This document shows, one piece after another, positions 6,130 through 62,335 of a DNA stretch of 64,000 bases. The notes beneath the pieces are model-generated. The model was given only the letters and a program-made list of their open reading frames with translations. It had not been told where the DNA came from and ran no database searches. Both the position numbers and the translations under genes were made by a program. Source of the DNA: Eledone cirrhosa (taxonomy: Eukaryota); NCBI GenBank assembly GCA_964016885.1, contig OZ024741.1, positions 294,004,001 to 294,068,000 of the forward strand. Direction: 5' to 3'. Each line of letters begins with the position of its first letter. The first letter of the stretch is position 1.

Positions 6130-6340
6130 TGTGGATTGGCAGAGTCATTGGAGCATCAGACAAGCTTTGCAGAATTTAGTAACAGTCTTTTACATTCTGA
6201 GTTCAAATCCCACTGACATCAACTTTGCTTTTCATCTTCTTGGGGTTGATAAAATAAAGTACAAGTATAATACTTTCATCAATAAAATCAACTCTTCACT
6301 CCAAACAAATTGCTGGCCTCATGCCTAAGGTAGAAATCAT
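6130..6340 (+). mobile_element. Diverged tRNA-derived SINE (family A, long variant)
   Basis: ggattggcag A-box, gagttcaaatccc B-box, core aactttgcttttcatc...gataaaataaagtac, end tgctggcc...gtagaaa. Confidence 0.75.
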
Positions 6341-6941: not shown

Positions 6942-7425
6942 TCATCATCTTCATCATCATTTAACACCCGTTTTCCTTGCTAGCAAAGTTTGGATGGGTC
7001 ATCTTTAGACCAGGTCAGTACTCAAGCAGAACTACTATCCTCTCAGGTGGGCTAGGGACCTGCATCTTGCTTACATAGGTTTCTGTGCGCTACTGATCCT
7101 AAATGCACACGCAAGCCCTAAGCCCACTCAAGGCTAAATTCACACTCAAGTCCTTGGTCTACCCAAGACTAAATTCATACTTGTTCTTCGTCTACCCAAG
7201 GTTAATTTCACACAGAAGACCTAGGACTACCCAAGGCTAATTTAACACATGAGTCCTAGGTCTATCTGAGGCTAAATTCACACATATATCCATTATCTAC
7301 CCAAGGCTAATTTCATTAACTGTTCATTGTCTACCTGAGGATAATTTCACACACAAATCCTTGATCCACCTGAGGCTACAGTAGAAAGAAGACACTTGTG
7401 CTGGTGTACCACATAGTGAGTTTGA
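6942..7425 (-). mobile_element. SINE remnant with internal ~36-bp minisatellite
   Basis: RTE-type (CAT)n tail at 6942, SINE motif gaggctacagtagaa..gacacttg at 7372, ~7 units ctacccaaggctaaattcacac at 7120-7380. Confidence 0.6.
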
Positions 7426-8449: not shown

Positions 8450-8485
<36 letters not shown>

Positions 8486-8591
8486 CTGTATATAAATGAA
8501 GTATTTCCGTCGGAAAGGTACAGGAAAAAAGAGTGCTCTATGTAGGCAACAGAGCTTATTAGTTATGTAATAAACAACATAAGATAATTAT

Positions 8592-8652
8592 TTCATTTAC
8601 CAGTGGTTTCTTGAAGGCAGATGTTATGTCTGTCTTCAGTCGTCAGAATGAA
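8592..8652 (-). ncRNA. Type I hammerhead ribozyme (predicted intact)
   Basis: ttcatt-CTGACGA-c-tgaag-acagacataacatctgc-cttca-a-GAAA-ccactgg-TA-aatgaa. Stems I, II and III pair. GUA cleavage triplet. Confidence 0.8.
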
Positions 8653-8987
8653 TAAATAACAGGGTGTTTTATTAAATATGGATTTGAAAACAAAATTTAG
8701 GAAATATGAAAGGAAATAGGGGAAAAAAATTTATAAAAAATATATATAAAAAAATGAATATCCAGAACATAAACATACACACACTCAACTACGCGCATAT
8801 ACGTAATAGTACGTAGACGTATATTTTCTCACATAAGCGTATTTGCGTCAACATAGAAATACGAACAGGAACATTTTTTATAAATTTGTTTCCCCTATAT
8901 CCTTTTTGCCTGTTTTTTTCAGCCTCACTTTCATATTTCCTAATTTTGTTTTCAAATCCATATTTAATAAAAACACCATGTTATTTA

Positions 8988-9045
8988 TTCATTCTGACGA
9001 CTGAAGACAGACACATCTGCCTTCAAGAAACCACTGGTAAATGAA
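8988..9045 (+). ncRNA. Type I hammerhead ribozyme (predicted intact)
   Basis: Stem I ttcatt 8988-8993 / aatgaa 9040-9045, CTGACGA 8994-9000, stem II tgaag/cttca plus caga/tctg, GAAA 9027-9030, stem III A-cc-act-gg-T. Predicted cut after 9039. Confidence 0.8.
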
Positions 9046-9046
9046 A

Positions 9047-9123
9047 TTTTGCCTTTCATCCTTACGGGGTCGATAAAATAAAGTACCAGTAATGCACTGG
9101 GTAATTGCACTGGGTAATTGCAC
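9047..9123 (+). mobile_element. Internal fragment of SINE family A
   Basis: tttgcctttcatccttacggggtcgataaaataaagtaccagtaatgcactgggtaattg. The 5' head is missing where the fold-back abuts. Confidence 0.85.
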
Positions 9124-17175: not shown

Positions 17176-17920
17176 TCCTTACCAATGCAGTCTCCTCTAT
17201 TGCACACCACTTGGTCAATAGTTCAAAATGTTGACTTGAAATGAAAGAAGGAAAGAAAAAAAAAACACACTTTCAAGAAAATTGTAGAAGGAAGAAATCA
17301 TTAGCATTACAATGATTTTTATTTTTGGTTTTGTTTATTTTTTCTTGGGTTTTTCTTCATTATTGAACGAAAAGATAAAATGTTTAATTAGGCTGCCGTG
17401 TAAAATGTATTGATTGTGTTCCTTTTATAAATAGCTACCTATAGTTCAGTTGTAATGCCAGAGAAAATGTAACAAGTCTATGATGATTTTATTAGATTTC
17501 TCTTCATTGTCTTTGCCTTTCTAACTTCTAATTAATTATAGTGTGTCAAAAGTAGTGTTTTCACTATGTATGTGTGGGGGATGGCTACTATTTTCACCAT
17601 CCTTCTTATATTAAATCTATAGGCAGAGTTCTTCTTAAAAGTACGGTATGCATGACAACAATACAGGAGATCGTGTTAGCAAATTCTGGAAAAAAAAAAA
17701 AGCTGATATTAAATTTCCTTATATTTATTTTATTTTGTTATATGTTATTGATGTTGCTGTTTTTCGACCGACCACTTTATAACATGGAAATTTAATGCAG
17801 AGAGATTGAAGTTCTGGTTTTGCCTGAATTTGTGATGTTTCATCTGTTGGAGTTTAATATATTGAGAGGAAAATACACTGGAGTAGATCTTGTTGGCTTG
17901 TTCTTGTGTCTATTTAACAT

Positions 17921-17961
17921 TTCTTCTTCTTCTTCTTCTTCTTCTTCTTCTTCTTCTTCTT

Positions 17962-17990
<29 letters not shown>
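17921..17990. repeat. (TTC)n microsatellite
   Basis: Read directly. Confidence 0.97.
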
Positions 17991-17992
<2 letters not shown>

Positions 17993-18006
17993 TCATTATT
18001 ATTATT

Positions 18007-19434
18007 GCCTGGTTTGGATGGTCTGCCCTATGAACTTTATGTACAGATGCCAAAACTGGGACAAGGTGACGAGCAGGGTGGCTTCTCTCACCCAGAAATG
18101 GGCGGAGAAGAAGCTATCCCTGAAAGGTCGAGTGGAGGTGGCTAACGCGTACATCGCATCTGTCATCTACTACCGCCTGACCATCGTGCCTTGTCCTAAG
18201 CCTCGCCTGACTGTGCTGGAGCGTTTGCTCTTTCGCTTTTTGTGGAAGGGATGCGCTCCGATGGTCAGACGGTCCATCTGCTGTCAACACCCGCTTCGTG
18301 GAGGGCTGGGCATGCCGTGGCTGATGATGCGCAGACACGCGCTCAGGCTACGACATCTCCACCTCTTCCTCGATGGTGATCAGGTGTGGTTGCCGTTTTC
18401 TGGACGCGTCTTTCCCCAGCTCATCTCCTTGACGGAGCTGCAGTCCTGGGTCAAGCGAAGACCGAGAGGGAGCGCTTGGAGACTGGAATGTCTTCAGGCG
18501 CTCACAGCCCTCGACCAATCGGGCAATGTGATCGGTGGAAACTCCACCTTGGCGTTCTATAGAGGATTAGTGGAGGGGAAGAGTGACGACGTACTTGGGG
18601 AAACTCTAGGCGTCGACGAAAATGAACTAGCCAATCTCTTCGGAAGGACTTTCGGGCCGGGGCCTATAGACAACTTCCAGAAATCCCTGGCCTGGCAGTG
18701 CTACCGGGGAGCTTTGCCAGTTCGGGATAAACTCTACAGGCATGGCGGTGCTGTCAGCCGAGCATGTCCGAGATGCGCGCAGGGCGACGAAACCGTCCTG
18801 CATGCACTCGTCCAGTGTCCAATCACTGCTGACTTGTGGGTTTATGTCGAACACTTGCTGTCGTGTGTAGAACGGATCCGACTATCAGCTGAGTCCATCG
18901 TGAGGATTGCCCTGCCCTCTTCCTTTAGCTGGGAATGGCAGGCAGTTTTTATCTGTCTGGTGGCCATGGCAAACGAGATAGTATAGTGGACGCGTCTGAA
19001 AGGGCAGAAGACGACCACTTACTTCTTCGGTGATGCCCTGATTAATTTTTTCCAATTTCATTTGAAAAGGAAAATCAGGGTAGAGAGGGAGGTGCTCTCT
19101 TCCCAGCTTTTTGTTGAAAGATGGGTGAGAGAGGCAAGAATGGTCCGAGTGAATGGACCTACTCTGAGTATATGCCTGTAAATTGAAGGTGGAAAACTGG
19201 GAGAGGACATTTGCCCTAGTGGTCAGGGTCACCATGGCTTTTTTTAATGGGCTTTCTCCATGATGGCCCTCGGAAGTGTCCCCCCTATTGGGGAATTTTT
19301 CATTGTTCTTTTATTACATCCTCTGTTTTTTTTGTTTTTTTTACATGCAGAAATGCCCATTTGTACCGTCCTGTATTGTCCTGTACTATCCTTAATGTCT
19401 ACTTTATGTAAACCCTTGTGGTTAATAAAGAAAA

Positions 19435-22148: not shown

Positions 22149-22328
22149 TCATCATCATCATTTTACGTCCGGGTTGGACGGGTTCTATTCAGCACAGCAT
22201 CTCTCCACTTGTCACGGTTCTTCGTCATCTCATCAGTGAGTTTCAGTGATCTGAGGTCTGCTCTCACCACCTCCACCCATGTTTGACGTGATCTACCTCT
22301 ACTGCATCTTCCTTCTACTGGCTTTCTT
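22149..22328 (-). mobile_element. RTE LINE 3' fragment
   Basis: Related to 16775-17175. Minus strand GRSRQTWVEVVRADLRSLKLTDEMTKNRDKWRCCA. Confidence 0.75.
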
Positions 22329-22341
22329 ATATATATATATT

Positions 22342-23231
22342 AAAAAGTTCAAAAAGTTCAGAGAGCTTATACCACTATTGGCCGCTAAAGGGTTCTCCCT
22401 AAAAATGAAAGGCAGGCTGTATGATGCCTGCATACGAACAGCAATGTTATATGGCAGTGAGACCTGGGCATTGTGTGCAGAGGATATACGCAGACTGGAG
22501 AGAAACGAAGCTTCCATGCTCCGCTGGATGTGTAATAGTAATATACGTGAACGGCAAAGCATATACGAACTAAGGGAGAAATTAGGAATAAGAGGGATCA
22601 GATGTTGTTTACACGAGAGAAGAATACGTTGGTACGGTCACGTGATGCGCATGAAAGACGACAGCTGTATAAAAAAGTGCAGGGCGATAAAAATAGATGG
22701 TAGCCATGGAGTAGGCAGACCCAGAAAAACCTGGGACGACTTAATAAATTCCGACCTCACACACTTACACCTCTCCAAGACAATGTCACTGGACCGAGAG
22801 CTTTGGCGCTACACAGTTATACAGAAGACCCGCCTTGCCTAAGTACAAAGCGAAAACCTACAGTCAGTAGGCACCTCTAACGAAATACACCCCCGTCCCA
22901 CTACCCCCACCCCATCCACACCACCCCCTTAAATGTGAAGTTATGTTGGTACTACAACATCCAGTCCGAAACAAATGAGGTCGTGTAGGTGTCATGACAA
23001 AAAAAACACACAGTCCACGCTGTAATGTGGCCGTGTAGGTAACACGGTAAAAACCTCCCAGTCCACACTGTAAATGTGGTTGGTGTTGGGAAGGGCATCC
23101 AGCCGTAGAAAACCCGCCAGACAGTTCTATACGAGCAGGACAAACAATCTTGCCTCAGGTGGGAAAACTCCCGTCCAAACCTATGCAAGCGTGGAAGATG
23201 GACGTTAAACGATGATGATGATGATGATGAT
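22342..23231 (+). mobile_element. Young 5'-truncated RTE LINE (subfamily 2)
   Basis: Open frame KFRELIPLL...LYGSETW...RWYGHVMRM...GRPRKTW to 22842, then 3'UTR and (GAT)n tail. (TA)n on both sides. Confidence 0.93.
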
Positions 23232-41660: not shown

Positions 41661-41718
41661 CTGAACTGAAGATCTGAGTGGATCCACATGTCTCACCCAG
41701 TGAAACACGTGTATTCAG
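41661..41718 (+). ncRNA. Type I minimal hammerhead ribozyme (predicted intact)
   Basis: ctgaa-CTGAAGA-t-ctgagtg...cacccag-t-GAAA-cacgtg-TA-ttcag, with 5-bp stem I and palindromic stem III. Predicted cut after 41713. AATAAA 41734-41739. Confidence 0.85.
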
Positions 41719-41944: not shown

Positions 41945-42650
41945 GATAATAATAATAATGATAATAATGAAATTATTGTGTACAGTGCTCAGGTGCACTA
42001 CAACTCATCAAAGGTGCATGTATAGTACATAGAATAATGTACAAATGTCAGGGAATAGTGTATGAGTCATGATATACATGTGTGCGTGAGTATGGAAGGG
42101 GAGTATTAGGTGTAGTGTTGGCGAATCTCAGGAAGCATGAAGGTTTTAAAGGATGCAGTGTCTCGACAGCTAACAACTGATGCCGGGAGATTGTTCCATG
42201 CTTCAGCATCTCTGAGCGTGAAAAAATATTTCCAAAAGTGATGGGAGCTGTGCTGTTTTCTGACTTTGTTGGCATGCTCACTTGTGTTAGACACATGGAA
42301 ATAAAAAAGGTATTCAGGGTTGTTGTTGGCAAGATGGTTAATAATTTTGTGGATGTTTACCAAGTCAGTTGCCAGACATCGGAGCTTCAATGTATCCATG
42401 CCCAGGGAAGTAAGGCGTTCAGAATATGGTAGATGCCTGATGGAGGGTATTCGTTTGATTGCATATCTCTGAACCGTTCCCAGGCAGTCAATGTTCTGAG
42501 CAAGATCGGTGTTCCAGACTGGTGATGCAAATTCTAAGTGTGATCGCACCATAGCTATATACAGCTTTAAATAGATAGCTGGAGAGTGGCTGACAAAGGT
42601 CTTGCTGATTGATGCTAAGACACCCTTGGCCTTCTTGACAATTTTAGAGA
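41945..42650 (-). mobile_element. CR1-type LINE, 5'-truncated
   Basis: ORF 42106-42654 LYIAMVRSHLEFASPVWN...VQRYAIK...LPYSERL...WNNLP, with an (ATT)n tail. Confidence 0.92.
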
Positions 42651-43778
42651 CCATTTAATGTCCATTTTTCCATGTTAAAATGGGTTAGATGATTTGTCTC
42701 GTTGTGAAATATGTCAGATCAGATGATCATGTCTTGCTCATACAGAACTGGTTCTGGGTTGGTTTCTACAGCTGGATTCCCTTCCTAATATCAACCACAT
42801 TTACAGTGTGTACTGGGTGCTTTTTGCCATGTCACCAACACCACTTTACTGTGTGGGCTGGGTGCTTTTTATTGTGTCACTAATATGACCACTTTACAGT
42901 ATTGACTGGCACTTCATATATATATATATAATGATTTAAAATTGTCCCACCACTATATTTCAATATAAATTTACACTGTAATAATCATCTTCAAGTTAAC
43001 ACTATTTCAATGAATCAGTTCGATTTTTTTTAAAATTCTATATAATATTTCTGCATTTTTATTTATATTTTCTTCTTCCAATCATCTCCTATGTGTGGTA
43101 GGGGTGTATAGTAAGTACTTGGATATTGTATATAAATAGATCTATACATAGTAACCAACCAGCTGATCACAGTGTTATGAGAAACACCTGCTCAGAGAAA
43201 TCTATTTCTTCATGTAAACAACAATTTTCAACTCGTATTTATAGGCAAGTTCTACACATACACTTATTTATTTATTTATTTGATATTATCATTATTTTCT
43301 ATTATTGTATATATCTAGTTAGATACATAAACATATGTGAGTGTGTGTGTGTCTGTATGGTAGGACTGTGACCACCAATGCAATATGTGCCAGCATTGCT
43401 ATGATATATATATTTGACAAAATCTAAATCTATTTAACGTAACAATTATAAAAATATTTTTTTCAGACAGATTAAAGAAAAACATTGTCTTTAAATATAC
43501 CCCATGCTTTTCACTTTTACTTTTCATATATATGTGTGAGTATATATGTAGGTGTCTATATAGATATATTTATATGCATATGTATGTCTTTGTATATATA
43601 AATATGTATGCATATATTTATATATATATATATATATGTGTGCGTGTGTATTTATTTATATATATACATATACAAGCATACATATATATAAATATATGCA
43701 TATATATTTATACATATGCAGACACACACACATATATATATATATATCATTTTTTAATGTATATATATCTATATGTTA

Positions 43779-50368: not shown

Positions 50369-50420
<52 letters not shown>

Positions 50421-50421
<1 letters not shown>

Positions 50422-53288
50422 GAGTACATGGAGGCCATGGAGTTGGCACAAGGAATGAGGAAGGATTCAGACTTCTAGAATTCTGCGACGCCAATGACAT
50501 GTCGATATGTAACACAAACTTTAAAAAACCCGACAACCACCTGATCACCTATAGATCAGGGGAGCACTCTAGTCAGTTAGATTTTATCCTCATCAGAGGA
50601 CGTGACAGATGGACGGTCGTAAACACAAAAGCCTTCCCTAGTGAGGAATGTACATCCCAACATAGCTTAGTTGTCAGCAACCTCACGGTCAGAACTAGAC
50701 GAGCCCTGAAACAGAGGCCAACCTGGAGAAGAAAGATCTGGAAGCTGAAAGTCCCCTCAACCAGTAACAGATTTAAAGATATTTTACTCAACGCCTACGA
50801 CAGTAAAGAAGAACAGATAGAGACATTTAACGTAGAAGAGAACTGGGAGTTCCTAAAAAATAACTTACTAGAGGCGACGGATGAGGTTTGTGGCTGGAGT
50901 AAGACCTCAAGCAGGAGGAGAGTGACTTGGTGGTGGAACAATAAGGTAGATGAAGCAGTCAAGGCCAAGAGACAGGCATGGAAAGAATGGAAGAACGGGG
51001 GGAGCAGGGTACATTACATAGAGACCAAGAGGGAAGCTAGGCGACAAGTATACTTAGCTAGGAGGGAAGCAGAGGTTAGAAAATTCAAGCATGTTTTACA
51101 ACGTGAGGACCAGAAACAGGAGGTATTCAAGATTGCGAGGCAGTGTGTCAGAGATAGTTGTGATGTCATTGGAGAGAAGTGTATCCGGAATGATAAAGGT
51201 GAGCTTGCCCTCACAAGTGCTGAGAAGAAAGATGCATGGAAGAGTCATTATGATAGATTACTAAATGAGGAGAATGCATGGGAAGAAGAGACCCTACCCC
51301 ACGTAGACCCTATAGAGGGACCAGCAGTACAAGTCAGCGGCAGCGTAGTAAGTAAGGCAATCAGAGATATGAAGATAGGGAAGGCAACCGGTCCATCGGG
51401 TATAGCTGCCGAGATGCTGAAGGCATCTGGGTCTGTAGGTCACACTATAACCACACGTATCGTTAACCAGGTAATACTAGAGGGGGCCATACCAAAAGAT
51501 TGGTGCAGTAGCATCATTGTCAACTGCTACAAAGGTAAAGGCGATGCACTAGATAGAGGAAACTATAGAGGTATAAAGTTGATGGACCAGGTCATGAAAG
51601 TAACAGAAAGAGTTATAGCACAGCTGATTAGGGACCGGGTGAATATAGACGAGATGCAATTTGGGTTTGTTCCAGGGAAAGGCACCACTGATGCGCTCTT
51701 CCTTGTGAGGCAATTACAGGAAAAGTACCTAGCTAAAAGTAAGCCACTCTACTTGGCATTTGTCGACCTTGAGAAAGCCTTTGACAGAGTTCCACGTGCA
51801 GTAATCTGGTGGGCTCTTAGAAAACTAGGAGTAGATGAATGGCTTGTGAAAGCGGTACAAGCCATGTATAGGGGAGCAGTCAGCAAAGTTAGAATTGGCA
51901 ATGAGTATAGCGAGGAATTTAGCGTACAGGTTGGGGTCCACCAGGGCTCTGTTCTTAGCCCTCTCCTGTTCATCATAGTCCTGCAGGCAATAACGGAGGA
52001 GTTTAAGACCGGATGCCCATGGGAACTCCTGTATGCTGATGACCTCGCACTCATAGCTGAATCTATGGTAGAACTAGAGAATAAATTCCAAACCTGGAAG
52101 CAGGGACTAGAGAGAAAGGGCCTCAAAGTCAACATGACAAAGACTAAGGTCCTTATAAGTAGACGAGAAAACAGAACCCAGATCCCCTCAGGGAAATGGC
52201 CTTGCTCAGTATGTAGGAAAGGTGTAGGTAGGAACTCCATTCTTTGCCCCAAATGCAAACAATGGGTACACAAGAGATGTAGCGGGATCTCAGGAAGCTT
52301 AATTAAGAATGTAGGATTCACATGCAGCAGCTGTGCTGAAACAGCAAGCAAACAGCCACAGGAAACAAGTACCACCAATCTCTGGGAGGGCCCTGTAGAA
52401 ACAGTAGACAGCTTCTGCTACCTAGGTGACCGAATTAGCAACGGAGGTGGGTGCTCAGAAAGTACAATAACTAGGGTAAGAACGGGATGGAAGAAGTTTA
52501 GGGAACTACTACCACTGCTAGCTGCAAAAGGCTTCTCCCTCAGAATGAAAGGCAGACTGTATGATGCGTGTATCCGAACAGCGATGTTGCATGGTAGTGA
52601 GACCTGGGCGCTGAAGGTGGAAGACTTACGTAGATTAGAGAGAAACGAAGCCTGCATGCTCCGATGGATGTGTAACAGTAATATACGTGAACGACAAAGC
52701 ATAAATGAATTGAGAGAGAGACTGAGCATAAGAGGAATCAAATGCTGCGTGCAGGAGAGGCGGTTACGCTGGTATGGACATGTGATGCGTATGAAGGATG
52801 ACAGCTGCATAAAAAGGTGCAGAGCACTAGAAGTTGATGGAAACCGCGGAGTGGGGAGACCCAAGATGACTTGGGATGAGGTGATAAAAGCCGACCTTAC
52901 CCAACTACACCTCTCAAAGTCAATGACACACGACCGTGACTTCTGGCGTCACGCAGTAATACAGGGTACCCGACCTCCCATGGGTACATGCTGAAGCATA
53001 TAAACAATATGCCCCCCCCCCCCCCCACCGCAAGGTGGTCGTGGAGGTGCCACGGCAAAAAAGCACCCAGCCCACACTGTAAAGTGGACGTGTAGGCGCC
53101 ACGAAAAAGCACCCAGCACTCACTGTAAATGAGGTTGGTGTTAGGAAGGGCATCCAGCTGTAGAAATCAAGCCAGATCAGTTCCTGTATGAGCAAGGCAT
53201 GGTCAGCCGACCAGACACTGCCCACAACAGGACAACCCGTCTAACCCATGCTAGCGTGGAAGAACGGACGTAAAACGGTGATGATGAT
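50421..53288 (+). mobile_element. Young 5'-truncated RTE-clade LINE
   Basis: Uninterrupted frame from ~50424 (VHGGHGVGTRNEEG), 3'UTR with internal repeats, (GAT)n tail, (TA)n on both flanks. Confidence 0.96.
50499..52994 (+). CDS. RTE ORF: C-terminal AP-endonuclease, reverse transcriptase, embedded PHD finger
   Basis: SQLDFIL..SQH (APE), NYRGIKL, QFGF, FVDLEKAFDRV, GVHQGSVLSPLLF, YADD, YLG, and C4HC3 at 52203-52334. The N-terminal endonuclease is missing, so the Met is not the true start. Confidence 0.93.
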   Translation: MSICNTNFKKPDNHLITYRSGEHSSQLDFILIRGRDRWTVVNTKAFPSEECTSQHSLVVSNLTVRTRRALKQRPTWRRKIWKLKVPSTSNRFKDILLNAYDSKEEQIETFNVEENWEFLKNNLLEATDEVCGWSKTSSRRRVTWWWNNKVDEAVKAKRQAWKEWKNGGSRVHYIETKREARRQVYLARREAEVRKFKHVLQREDQKQEVFKIARQCVRDSCDVIGEKCIRNDKGELALTSAEKKDAWKSHYDRLLNEENAWEEETLPHVDPIEGPAVQVSGSVVSKAIRDMKIGKATGPSGIAAEMLKASGSVGHTITTRIVNQVILEGAIPKDWCSSIIVNCYKGKGDALDRGNYRGIKLMDQVMKVTERVIAQLIRDRVNIDEMQFGFVPGKGTTDALFLVRQLQEKYLAKSKPLYLAFVDLEKAFDRVPRAVIWWALRKLGVDEWLVKAVQAMYRGAVSKVRIGNEYSEEFSVQVGVHQGSVLSPLLFIIVLQAITEEFKTGCPWELLYADDLALIAESMVELENKFQTWKQGLERKGLKVNMTKTKVLISRRENRTQIPSGKWPCSVCRKGVGRNSILCPKCKQWVHKRCSGISGSLIKNVGFTCSSCAETASKQPQETSTTNLWEGPVETVDSFCYLGDRISNGGGCSESTITRVRTGWKKFRELLPLLAAKGFSLRMKGRLYDACIRTAMLHGSETWALKVEDLRRLERNEACMLRWMCNSNIRERQSINELRERLSIRGIKCCVQERRLRWYGHVMRMKDDSCIKRCRALEVDGNRGVGRPKMTWDEVIKADLTQLHLSKSMTHDRDFWRHAVIQGTRPPMGTC

Positions 53289-55400: not shown

Positions 55401-56055
55401 TGCGTATGTGTGTGTTGTGTGTTTATGTGGTGTGTACTCACACATATATATATATTTATTCCTTGATTTGTTAATAATTGATTTACCTGAAATATTTCTT
55501 ATCCTCAAGAGAATTGTCAGTGATACATATATGAGAGAAAATCAAGGAAATGTTTTTCATTTCTTTCCTCTCGTGGGAACATTATATACATTCATGAGTT
55601 TCAGGTATTCATAAAATAAACTCTAAAAAAAAAACTCATTCACTAAAACAAACCCACATGTGCACATGTTTATATCTGTGTGTATATGTGCATATATACA
55701 TTTATATATGTATGGATATGTACATATATACATATATGTCTATATGTATGTATATGTATATACATACATACATACATGTCTATATGTGTGTATATGTACA
55801 TACATACACTGATGGACAAATGAATATTTTAATATGTTGTTCGATGTGGTAGCGTTTATTTAGCATATATGATGCTATAAATGTGTTTGCATTCCTCTTT
55901 TCTTTCTTTCTTTCTCTCTCTATATATGTATGTGTGTGTCTGTGTGTATAAAAATATACATTTCTTTATGGTTGTACCGTGTAGTCTATATACATATATA
56001 TATATATATATATATAAAAATACAAAGTTGTATGGAAATATTCAGAAATGAATAC

Positions 56056-56402
56056 GGTACATGGCTTAGTGGTTAGAGCATTGGCCTTGCAATCGAAAGG
56101 TTGTGAGTTCAATTCTCAGACCGGGTGATGTGTTGTTTCCTTGAGCAAGACACTTTATTTCACATTGTTCCAGTTTACTCAGCTGTAGAAATGAGATGAT
56201 AGGAACTGGGGTCCCTATCATACCACTGCAAAGTGGTCATGGAGGTGCCATGGCAAAAAAGCACCCAGCCCACACTGTAAAGTGGACGTGTAGGTGCCAC
56301 GGCAAAAAAGCACCCAGCACTCACTGTAAATGAGGTTGGTGTTAGGAAGGGCATCCAGCTGTAGAAATCAAGCCAGAATCAGTTCCCGTCCCACCCTTGC
56401 AA
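56056..56402 (+). mobile_element. SINE family B with RTE tail, cut by the gap
   Basis: Near-identical to 58320-58666. Confidence 0.9.
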
Positions 56403-58286: not shown

Positions 58287-58319
58287 CAAAGTTGTATGTA
58301 AATATTCAGAAATGAATAC

Positions 58320-58716
58320 GGTACATGGCTTAGTGGTTAGAGCATTGGCCTTGCAATCGAAAGGTTGTGAGTTCAATTCTCAGACCGGGTGATGTGTTGT
58401 TTCCTTGAGCAAGACACTTTATTTCACATTGTTCCAGTTTACTCAGCTGTAGAAATGAGATGATAGGAACTGGGGTCCCTATCATACCACTGAAAAGTGG
58501 TCATGGAGGTGCCATGGCAAAAAAGCACCCAGCCCACACTGTAAAGTGGACGTGTAGGTGCCACGGCAAAAAAGCACCCAGCACTCACTGTAAATGAGGT
58601 TGGTGTTAGGAAGGGCATCCAGCTGTAGAAATCAAGCCAGAATCAGTTCCCGTCCCACCCTTGCAAGCAGGGAAAAGCGGACGTAAAATGATGATGATGA
58701 TGATGATGATGATGAT
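58320..58716 (+). mobile_element. Full-length tRNA-derived SINE family B with RTE-derived 3' end
   Basis: A-box tggcttagtgg, B-box gagttcaattc, core ccttgagcaagacactt. The 3' ~200 bp matches the RTE 3'UTR 53035-53288 and ends in a (GAT)n tail. Confidence 0.92.
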
Positions 58717-61267: not shown

Positions 61268-61720
61268 TATCAGGGTACCATGTGTGGTTGCATGCTGATT
61301 GGCTGCAAAAGAGATAATCTTATATCAAGCCAATAATATACATAGGTTTTACAAACCAGTATTAAAACATTGAGCGTAAACATATATTATATAGATAAAT
61401 ATTCCTAAAACTCATTAAAAAAAAAATCTAAAATATATAAATTCTCCAACTTTCTTGTCACTGATGCTTTCATTCTTTTTTTATTCATTTATTTATTGTA
61501 TGTTTGTTTTGGGAGATAGGGGTTTATTAATCTAAATTCTTGAAGCAAAAAGCTGTTTTGGTGGTAACTTAAGTGCTATTTCTAGTAGATGAAGCAATCA
61601 CATAGTCTTCCTTTTTCACATGTAGCTGTAACATTCTGCTGAAGTTAATCTTATGGAAATTAACTGTCGAACCAATCTTTTAAGTTTTACAAACTAATAT
61701 TAATATAGTTTGTAAAACTA

Positions 61721-62335
61721 AGCTGTATACAGCTATGGTACGACCACACTTGGAATTCGCATCATCAGTCTGGAACCCCTATCTTGCTCAGAACATTGAC
61801 CTCCTGGAAACTGTTCAGAGACGTGCAACCAAGCGCATACCCTCCATCAGACACCTACCATACTCTGAACGCTTTGCTTCCTTGGGCATGGATTCATTGA
61901 AACTCCGACGTCTGGCAACGGACTTGGTAAACACCCACAAAGTTATTAATCATCTCGCCAACAACAACCCTGAGCACCTTTTTGATCTCCATGTGTCTAA
62001 CACACGTGGACATGCCTACAAAATCAGAAAACAGCACAGCTCCCATGACTTTCGGAAACATTTTTTCACGCTTAGAATTGCTGAAGCATGGAACAAACTG
62101 CCTGCATCAGTTGTTAGCTGCCGAGACACTGCATCCTTTAAAACAGTCATGCTTCCTGAAATTCGTCAAAACTACACCTGATGTCCCCTTCCATACACAT
62201 GCACACATGTGTATATCATGACTCATGCACTGTTCATTTTCCTGACGTTTGTACATTACCCTATGTACTATACATACACTTTTGATGAGTTCTAGTGCAC
62301 CTGAGCACTGTACACAATATTTTAATTATTATTAT
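61721..62335 (+). mobile_element. CR1-type LINE, 5'-truncated, relatively young
   Basis: ORF 61735-62181 VRPHLEFASSVWNPY...VQRRATK...TRGH..K...FFTLR...WNKLP, then 3'UTR and ATT tail. Confidence 0.93.

Follow-up and report, generated by a model that had tools for sequence, protein, structure and literature searches.

A probable truncated Hydra-clade Penelope-like insertion with two hammerhead-bearing 3′ ends head to head in Eledone cirrhosa

Penelope-like elements (PLEs) with adjacent inverted copies have been published (Craig et al. 2021, PMC8557442, Fig. 2 legend and Files S1/S2; also PMC3846280 and PMC4209133), and the accessible text of PMC8557442 names the formation of their head-to-head structures and one-sided tails as open. 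It also lists RWK, DKT, CxCx5C and CxxC/CxH without CCHH as diagnostics of the Hydra clade, and treats a length below 3 kb as a tendency of that clade that is not diagnostic. For Poseidon of Anolis, the available part of PMC11167929 reports that both target strands are cut and extended in vitro, with two RT start sites and a predicted dimer. The literature that we searched, with partial coverage, held no explicit statement of twin priming for PLEs.

We analysed a 64,000-nucleotide stretch of the Eledone cirrhosa genome (contig OZ024741.1, positions 294,004,001 to 294,068,000; hereafter the window, whose numbering is used throughout), in which an element at 8486-9047 had been predicted to carry an outward-facing hammerhead ribozyme at each end. 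We conclude, with a probability of about 0.88, that this feature is a truncated Hydra-clade Penelope-like insertion with two hammerhead-bearing 3′ ends head to head at (TA)n, likely produced by both nicked strands priming RT at two fixed start sites. Its parts are as follows.

8460..8485, no strand: (TA)n microsatellite, probably the target of insertion
8486..8874, minus: arm 1, the 5′-truncated 3′ end of a Penelope-like element assigned to the Hydra clade, 389 nt, with the family's long end; colinear with other copies at 78-91%
8486..8559, minus: tail, ~74 nt separating the short family end from the long one (bimodal ends; ORF continuation)
8592..8652, minus: left-hand type I hammerhead motif, predicted to be cut at 8598/8597 (descriptor; pairing across families)
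8742..8872, minus: 'spacer', the part of arm 1 unmirrored by arm 2, CpG-rich element sequence
8873..8874, no strand: point where the arms meet head to head, overlapping by 2 nt (AT), placed by eye against family copies
8873..9047, plus: arm 2, an inverted copy, more strongly 5′-truncated, its last ~30 nt (short end) absent
8920..8922, plus: CAG after a pyrimidine tract, a possible splice acceptor, deleted in arm 1 (alignment with the sister family)
8988..9045, plus: type I hammerhead motif, right copy, loop II 3 nt shorter, predicted cut 9039/9040
9048..9110, plus: fragment of an unrelated SINE-like repeat, headless unlike the other window copies, clipping arm 2

The inverted repeat is real. 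Its arms, 8590-8741 and 8873-9047, are identical at 146 of 148 aligned columns, with gaps of 26 nt (right-arm sequence that the left arm lacks), of 3 nt in loop II of the right copy, and of one base at two places. The length of '~460 bp' first ascribed to the repeat is that of the whole span (458 bp), which comprises arms of 152 and 175 bp and a spacer of 131 bp. The left copy does continue past the repeat up to (TA)n, for 104 nt against the ~100 nt predicted, and the spacer is indeed CpG-rich (8 CpG in 131 nt, o/e 2.37 versus 0.38 for the window). This spacer is ordinary pseudo-LTR sequence, colinear in other family copies. Because those copies are colinear with 8874 to 8486 on the minus strand, spacer included, arm 1 is a 5′-truncated element end and arm 2 a shorter inverted copy. 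In three longer copies (L124, L126 and L127) the sequence of arm 1 runs on into the start of an ORF. Nearly all of the family ends displayed adjoin (TA)n or (CA)n; a target-site duplication is not discernible within the (TA)n here.

The repeat had also been described as stopping about 8 nt past each predicted cut. This holds for the right arm, which alone sets the limit: arm 2 stops at 9047 against the SINE-like fragment, at a junction found once in the 3.0-Gb genome. A recurrent PLE-SINE chimera is ruled out by that single genome-wide match. One other copy (L045) stops, by eye, at the same point as arm 2. Ten more copies of the SINE-like repeat lie in the window (at 6224, 13740, 15138, 21029, 21885, 25009, 29343, 38122, 49304 and 62453), and the head region missing at 9048 is present in 9 of those 10, the nine viewed. 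Two identical tRNA-like matches just over the Rfam threshold (56055-56124 and 58319-58388), neither called by ARAGORN, are probably SINE heads in a local duplication. Elsewhere in the window are a degenerate tandem array of period ~35 nt (7079-7378) and open frames that resemble LINE remnants (17796-18983, 22255-22839, 42109-42654, 50370-52991 and 61684-62178).

A search of the genome with the right arm gave 95-99% identity in the 40 scored of 1757 candidates. An exact 19-nt core pattern had 483 matches genome-wide and its reversed control 0, so that the motif is not a product of chance; counted as exact core matches, the family has at least 483 copies. Among the first 100 of the 483 matches listed there were 13 neighbours within 10 kb, namely 11 outward (9 of them within 1 kb), 2 direct and 0 inward. 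The two-headed form thus recurs across the genome, as had been proposed for checking. All 11 outward spacings in these first 100 matches differ, ranging from 36 to 4424 nt, and such directly observed variation of the junction indicates that the two-headed form arises anew at each insertion. Many family copies have no second arm within 1.5 kb. As a separate observation, the flanks of L035, L031, L039, L044, L143 and L145 hold other hammerhead-bearing repeats of different sequence, some of them head to head, in the same TA tracts, which suggests several further PLE families.

The identity of the element follows directly from longer copies. One of them (L046) has ORF remnants, then ~1.65 kb of simple-repeat-rich sequence, then the same hammerhead. 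The end of its ORF matched 41 loci, of which 20 were fetched and read from a table. The same hammerhead pseudo-LTR lies downstream, within the fetched range, in 10 of these 20, and directly upstream of the ORF start in 3; an inverted piece adjoins the 5′ end in 13. In L124, L126 and L127 the sequence past the hammerhead passes through the 'tail' into an ATG, placing the tail between pseudo-LTR and ATG in full-length copies; L124 has the order pLTR-ORF-pLTR, and L126 and L127 have a pLTR directly upstream of the ORF. Partial tandem pseudo-LTRs with a hammerhead, an adjacent inverted 5′-truncated copy and a tail at one end only are all found here, as expected of EN+ Penelope-like elements. The suggested link to PLEs and their inverted copies is thereby established by ORF linkage and recurring pairs, and longer copies carry an RT-endonuclease ORF of the kind that the original prediction had proposed to look for.

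The ORFs of the present family (family A) are broken in all four long copies read (L046, L124, L126 and L127). A sister family (family B), with 81-82% DNA identity to family A over the ORF, has intact ORFs of 714-715 aa, and family-A fragments are 88% identical to it in the RT segment. No intact ORF of family A was thus encountered, and the evidence on protein structure is taken from family B. A model of the family-B 715-aa ORF built with 98 homologues reached pLDDT 93; the best eight PDB structures found for it by Foldseek are telomerase RTs. A single-sequence fold (pLDDT 34.5) was unusable. In look-alike Atlas clusters, RVT_1 and GIY-YIG are found in part of the members, PF01541 in 21-47% of them. 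A GIY-YIG-type pattern, VVY...YVG with downstream R, H, E and N, is conserved in 99 homologues. Pfam and PDB sequence searches with the ORF returned nothing significant.

RMRWK and SDKTK are present in both families (the RWK and DKT motifs). The linker CSCRKP(D/E)EC fits CxCx5C, CSLC..EK..LN..CxH supplies CxxC/CxH around E and N, and CCHH is absent, there being no cysteine between VVY and YVG. The Neptune clade was rejected on this last point, as its CCHH with two cysteines inside GIY-YIG is missing. Insertion is into (TA)n, as in the Hydra clade. The element is longer than the <3 kb to which that clade tends, with a tandem period of ~4.3 kb in family B (L175) and ~4.7 kb in L124. Judged by its motif diagnostics, the element is a new family of the Hydra clade of EN+ Penelope-like elements.

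Some further features of family B were noted. It comprises L175, L176 and L177 (G000:C4:259410500-259420400, C5:121795500-121805400 and C3:285685000-285694900) together with L051-L080, and its intact ORFs occur in numerous nearly identical copies. Each unit has two hammerheads, of which the terminal one reads GUA in 14/14; the internal one, located ~250-350 nt beyond the stop codon, carries G at position 17 in 26/28, and from this sequence should not cleave. In 8905-8940, L127 and L175, a pyrimidine tract followed by CAG and then CCTCACTTTCATAT is common to the two families and sits where their strong homology sets in. The tract and CAG may be a splice acceptor, and the simple-repeat-rich 3′ region may be an intron.

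Both strands of the window were scanned with a type I hammerhead descriptor, which found three sites: the two outward-facing copies, one per strand, and an unrelated site at 41666. Each copy has the parts originally listed, that is, a 6-bp stem I, CUGACGA, a long stem II, GAAA, a short palindromic stem III and GUA, and thus the type I core CUGANGA/GAAA/UH with three stems. They had been called intact. That description rests on the motif and its covariation; Rfam gave no hammerhead match here, either at the gathering score or at E<=10. Of 108 hammerhead copies 98 could be parsed. Over 41 of these 98 the three stems are 91.5% paired, with covariation of 0.149 versus 0.113+-0.007 (0 of 500 shuffles) and double changes in stem II; these double changes go back to two or three lineage events, and the covariation is supportive of a hammerhead fold rather than proof of it.

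A C-A mismatch noticed earlier at the base of stem II is present and widespread: 54/56 family-A copies have C·A at this position, which is U-A in 13/14 terminal family-B copies, so that in family A stem II is closed neither by G10.1-C11.1 nor by another pair. Core position 7 also varies between the families. The mismatch is a family-wide state and not the decay of a single copy, and many Hydra hammerheads in the accessible supplement of PMC8557442 list a mismatch next to the core. Stem III consists of three palindromic pairs, through which two copies co-fold at -28.6 kcal/mol versus 2 x -9.8 kcal/mol. Minimal hammerheads have been given a dimer model and have low activity in vitro (PMC4209133, available part), and a PLE hammerhead is described in the portion of PMC11167929 available to us as protein-assisted and, in vitro, dispensable for insertion. 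The hammerheads here are pseudo-LTR cargo, and are predicted to be weak, dimer- or protein-dependent, and foldable only in transcripts that start in the spacer.

The 3′ ends of the family fall into two discrete classes, ~38 or ~105 nt past the predicted cut. The ends of 62 copies labelled A were 30 short (~23-34 nt past 8590), 28 long (81-104 nt past 8590), 2 other and 2 without context; about three of the 62 are mislabelled family-B copies, and the plus copy of L045, scored short, really stops like arm 2. A segmental duplicate (L029) was left out before pairs were counted. Adjacent outward-facing ends made up 37 pairs (29 long/short, 7 short/short and 1 long/long). The seven short/short pairs and four long/short ones involve family B and were dropped (five use the internal hammerhead repeat and two are misread long tails). 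The family-A pairs kept are 25 long/short, 1 long/long (L146) and 0 short/short. Nine of these came from a tail-anchored search; the pairs not selected in this way are 17/17 long/short (p=1.5e-5 against 0.5). The true end of arm 2 is absent here, so that the long/short rule rests on other copies and not on this locus. In several insertions (L009/L040, L019/L048, L112, L126 and L176) only the tail is inverted at the 5′ end.

None of 29 tail-anchored copies has a 5′ start within 2 nt of the ribozyme cut, which rules out ends or 5′ truncations at that cut; in L187 one tandem piece starts 2 nt from it. Among the 5′ truncations of L132-L160, 8/29 lie within 15 nt of the hammerhead start (the equivalent of 8647-8661, just upstream or at the start) and 6/29 near the short end. 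Such clustering may point to a start of the RNA, to stalling of the RT or to microhomology with TA.

Long/short pairing of ends fits priming on both target strands. We infer the both-strand model by analogy, borrowing it from a Poseidon-clade element. The endonuclease would nick both target strands at TA, the long site would be used for priming on one strand and the short site on the other, and both cDNAs would stop early and be joined by microhomology (AT at 8873-8874); a later deletion or SINE event would then have removed the short end of arm 2. More tentatively, and with the odds somewhat against it, a dimeric integration complex may prime both strands with obligatorily one long and one short RNA start site, often on two RNAs. 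If so, long/short pairing, tail-only inversions and arm-specific loop II alleles would be the genomic record of the mechanism, and the head-to-head structure of Penelope elements in general would be explained.

The same element could instead have acquired its inverted arm when a single cDNA folded back and primed itself or switched template, which we consider unlikely but worth weighing. Self-priming fold-back was proposed for rotifer Penelopes from junction palindromes (PMC3846280, accessible part), and sister arms resemble each other somewhat more than random pairs do (0.033 vs 0.052 in 13 pairs of a sample chosen by similarity). Fold-back alone, however, explains neither the one-long/one-short outer ends nor the tail-only inverted pieces, and the junction at 8873-8874 falls short of a perfect palindrome. 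Loop II has a 3-nt indel at family level that differs between sister arms in 5/13 pairs, that of 8486-9047 included, which is about what independent draws would give, though the indel could recur by slippage; rare variants are common to sister arms in only 1/13 pairs.

Far less probable is the retrozyme reading first raised, a non-autonomous two-headed element that moves as a unit and yields a self-cleaved hairpin RNA. Two complete cores and the frequency of compact two-headed forms (nine of the pairs in the first 100 of the 483 matches listed lie within 1 kb) would suit it, but the 11 differing outward spacings in that sample mean that the form is not copied as a unit. The arrangement here is head to head and not a head-to-tail tandem, and neighbours in that sample are 11 outward against 2 direct. 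Nor do the ribozymes cap a purpose-built element, since junctions differ in every pair and the ends lie off the cut site. The predicted fold of a both-arm transcript (-237 or -258 kcal/mol) pairs the hammerhead core fully with its antisense copy; forcing the hammerhead fold costs +77.7 or +81.1 kcal/mol, and +7.0 or +4.7 kcal/mol if transcription starts in the spacer. The core is buried in the hairpin, and the antisense arm is the first to be transcribed; a transcript is thus predicted either to form the hairpin or to be cleaved, but not both, and a long hairpin with a self-cleaved 3′ end is unlikely by these models.

A read-through hairpin is a possible candidate dsRNA and ADAR or Dicer substrate. 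Retroposed copies show no A-to-I imprint (A>G 39 vs T>C 47 in 118 copies, p=0.59), a test that covers those copies and says nothing on transcripts of this locus. Nothing specific on cephalopod hairpin editing was found in the literature searched, from which most subscription journals fell outside coverage.

We give practically no credence to a DNA MITE with terminal inverted repeats: the feature is short, non-coding and of fold-back shape, but in place of fixed symmetric terminal inverted repeats and a uniform length, the TIR features that were to have spoken for a MITE, there are asymmetric ends, varying internal junctions and mostly one-armed copies, and the autonomous partner codes an RT, not a transposase.

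As one of hundreds of dead fragments, the single locus carries little weight. The family is of use as material for study: the genome supplies hundreds of two-armed insertions whose ends fall sharply into two classes, and the young sister family has intact 714-aa ORFs open to assay. Two-armed insertions may, besides, give rise to double-stranded RNA in the host.

Several described systems resemble this insertion, as compared here with the accessible parts of their sources. In Poseidon of Anolis (Frangieh et al. 2024, PMC11167929), which belongs to another clade, two RT start sites define a tail and the target is AT-rich, as in the present family; the tail is 30-40 bp in the Poseidon literature versus ~70 nt here, and the hammerhead overlaps the ORF start there but lies ~220 nt upstream of the ATG here. 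Non-LTR retrozymes (PMC7229834; bioRxiv 10.64898/2026.07.22.740005) are non-coding, PLE-related and equipped with a type I hammerhead, as is this locus, but form head-to-tail tandems of units of ~170-400 nt, whereas the arms here are head to head with a variable junction. The dual hammerheads of Schistosoma mansoni (Cervera and de la Pena 2014, PMC4209133) lie on opposite strands 100-700 bp apart and were attributed to truncated PLEs, like the present pair. Its minimal hammerheads share the long stem II and palindromic stem III and have low in vitro activity, and at the base of stem II their consensus is G10.1-C11.1, in contrast to C·A and then U-A here.

Among the Hydra-clade elements of PMC8557442, Hydra-1_Obim in particular is similar, with the same RWK, DKT, CxCx5C and CxxC/CxH, no CCHH, a (TA)n target and a hammerhead; the palindromic stem III (acca-N-tggt) is shared, and its N-terminus and YDSAD motif are closely similar by eye. 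Its hammerhead stems I and II are different, the present unit of ~4.3-4.7 kb, with a simple-repeat-rich 3′ region of ~2 kb, exceeds the <3 kb of the Hydra clade, and pseudo-LTR tandems occur in the present family whereas Hydra-1_Obim is listed as 'no pLTR'. Penelope-13_HM, also of the Hydra clade (Files S1/S2 of PMC8557442), is listed as having a 5′-truncated inverted copy at the 5′ end, with one and the same hammerhead on each strand, but includes ORF sequence where the present insertion consists of pseudo-LTR only.
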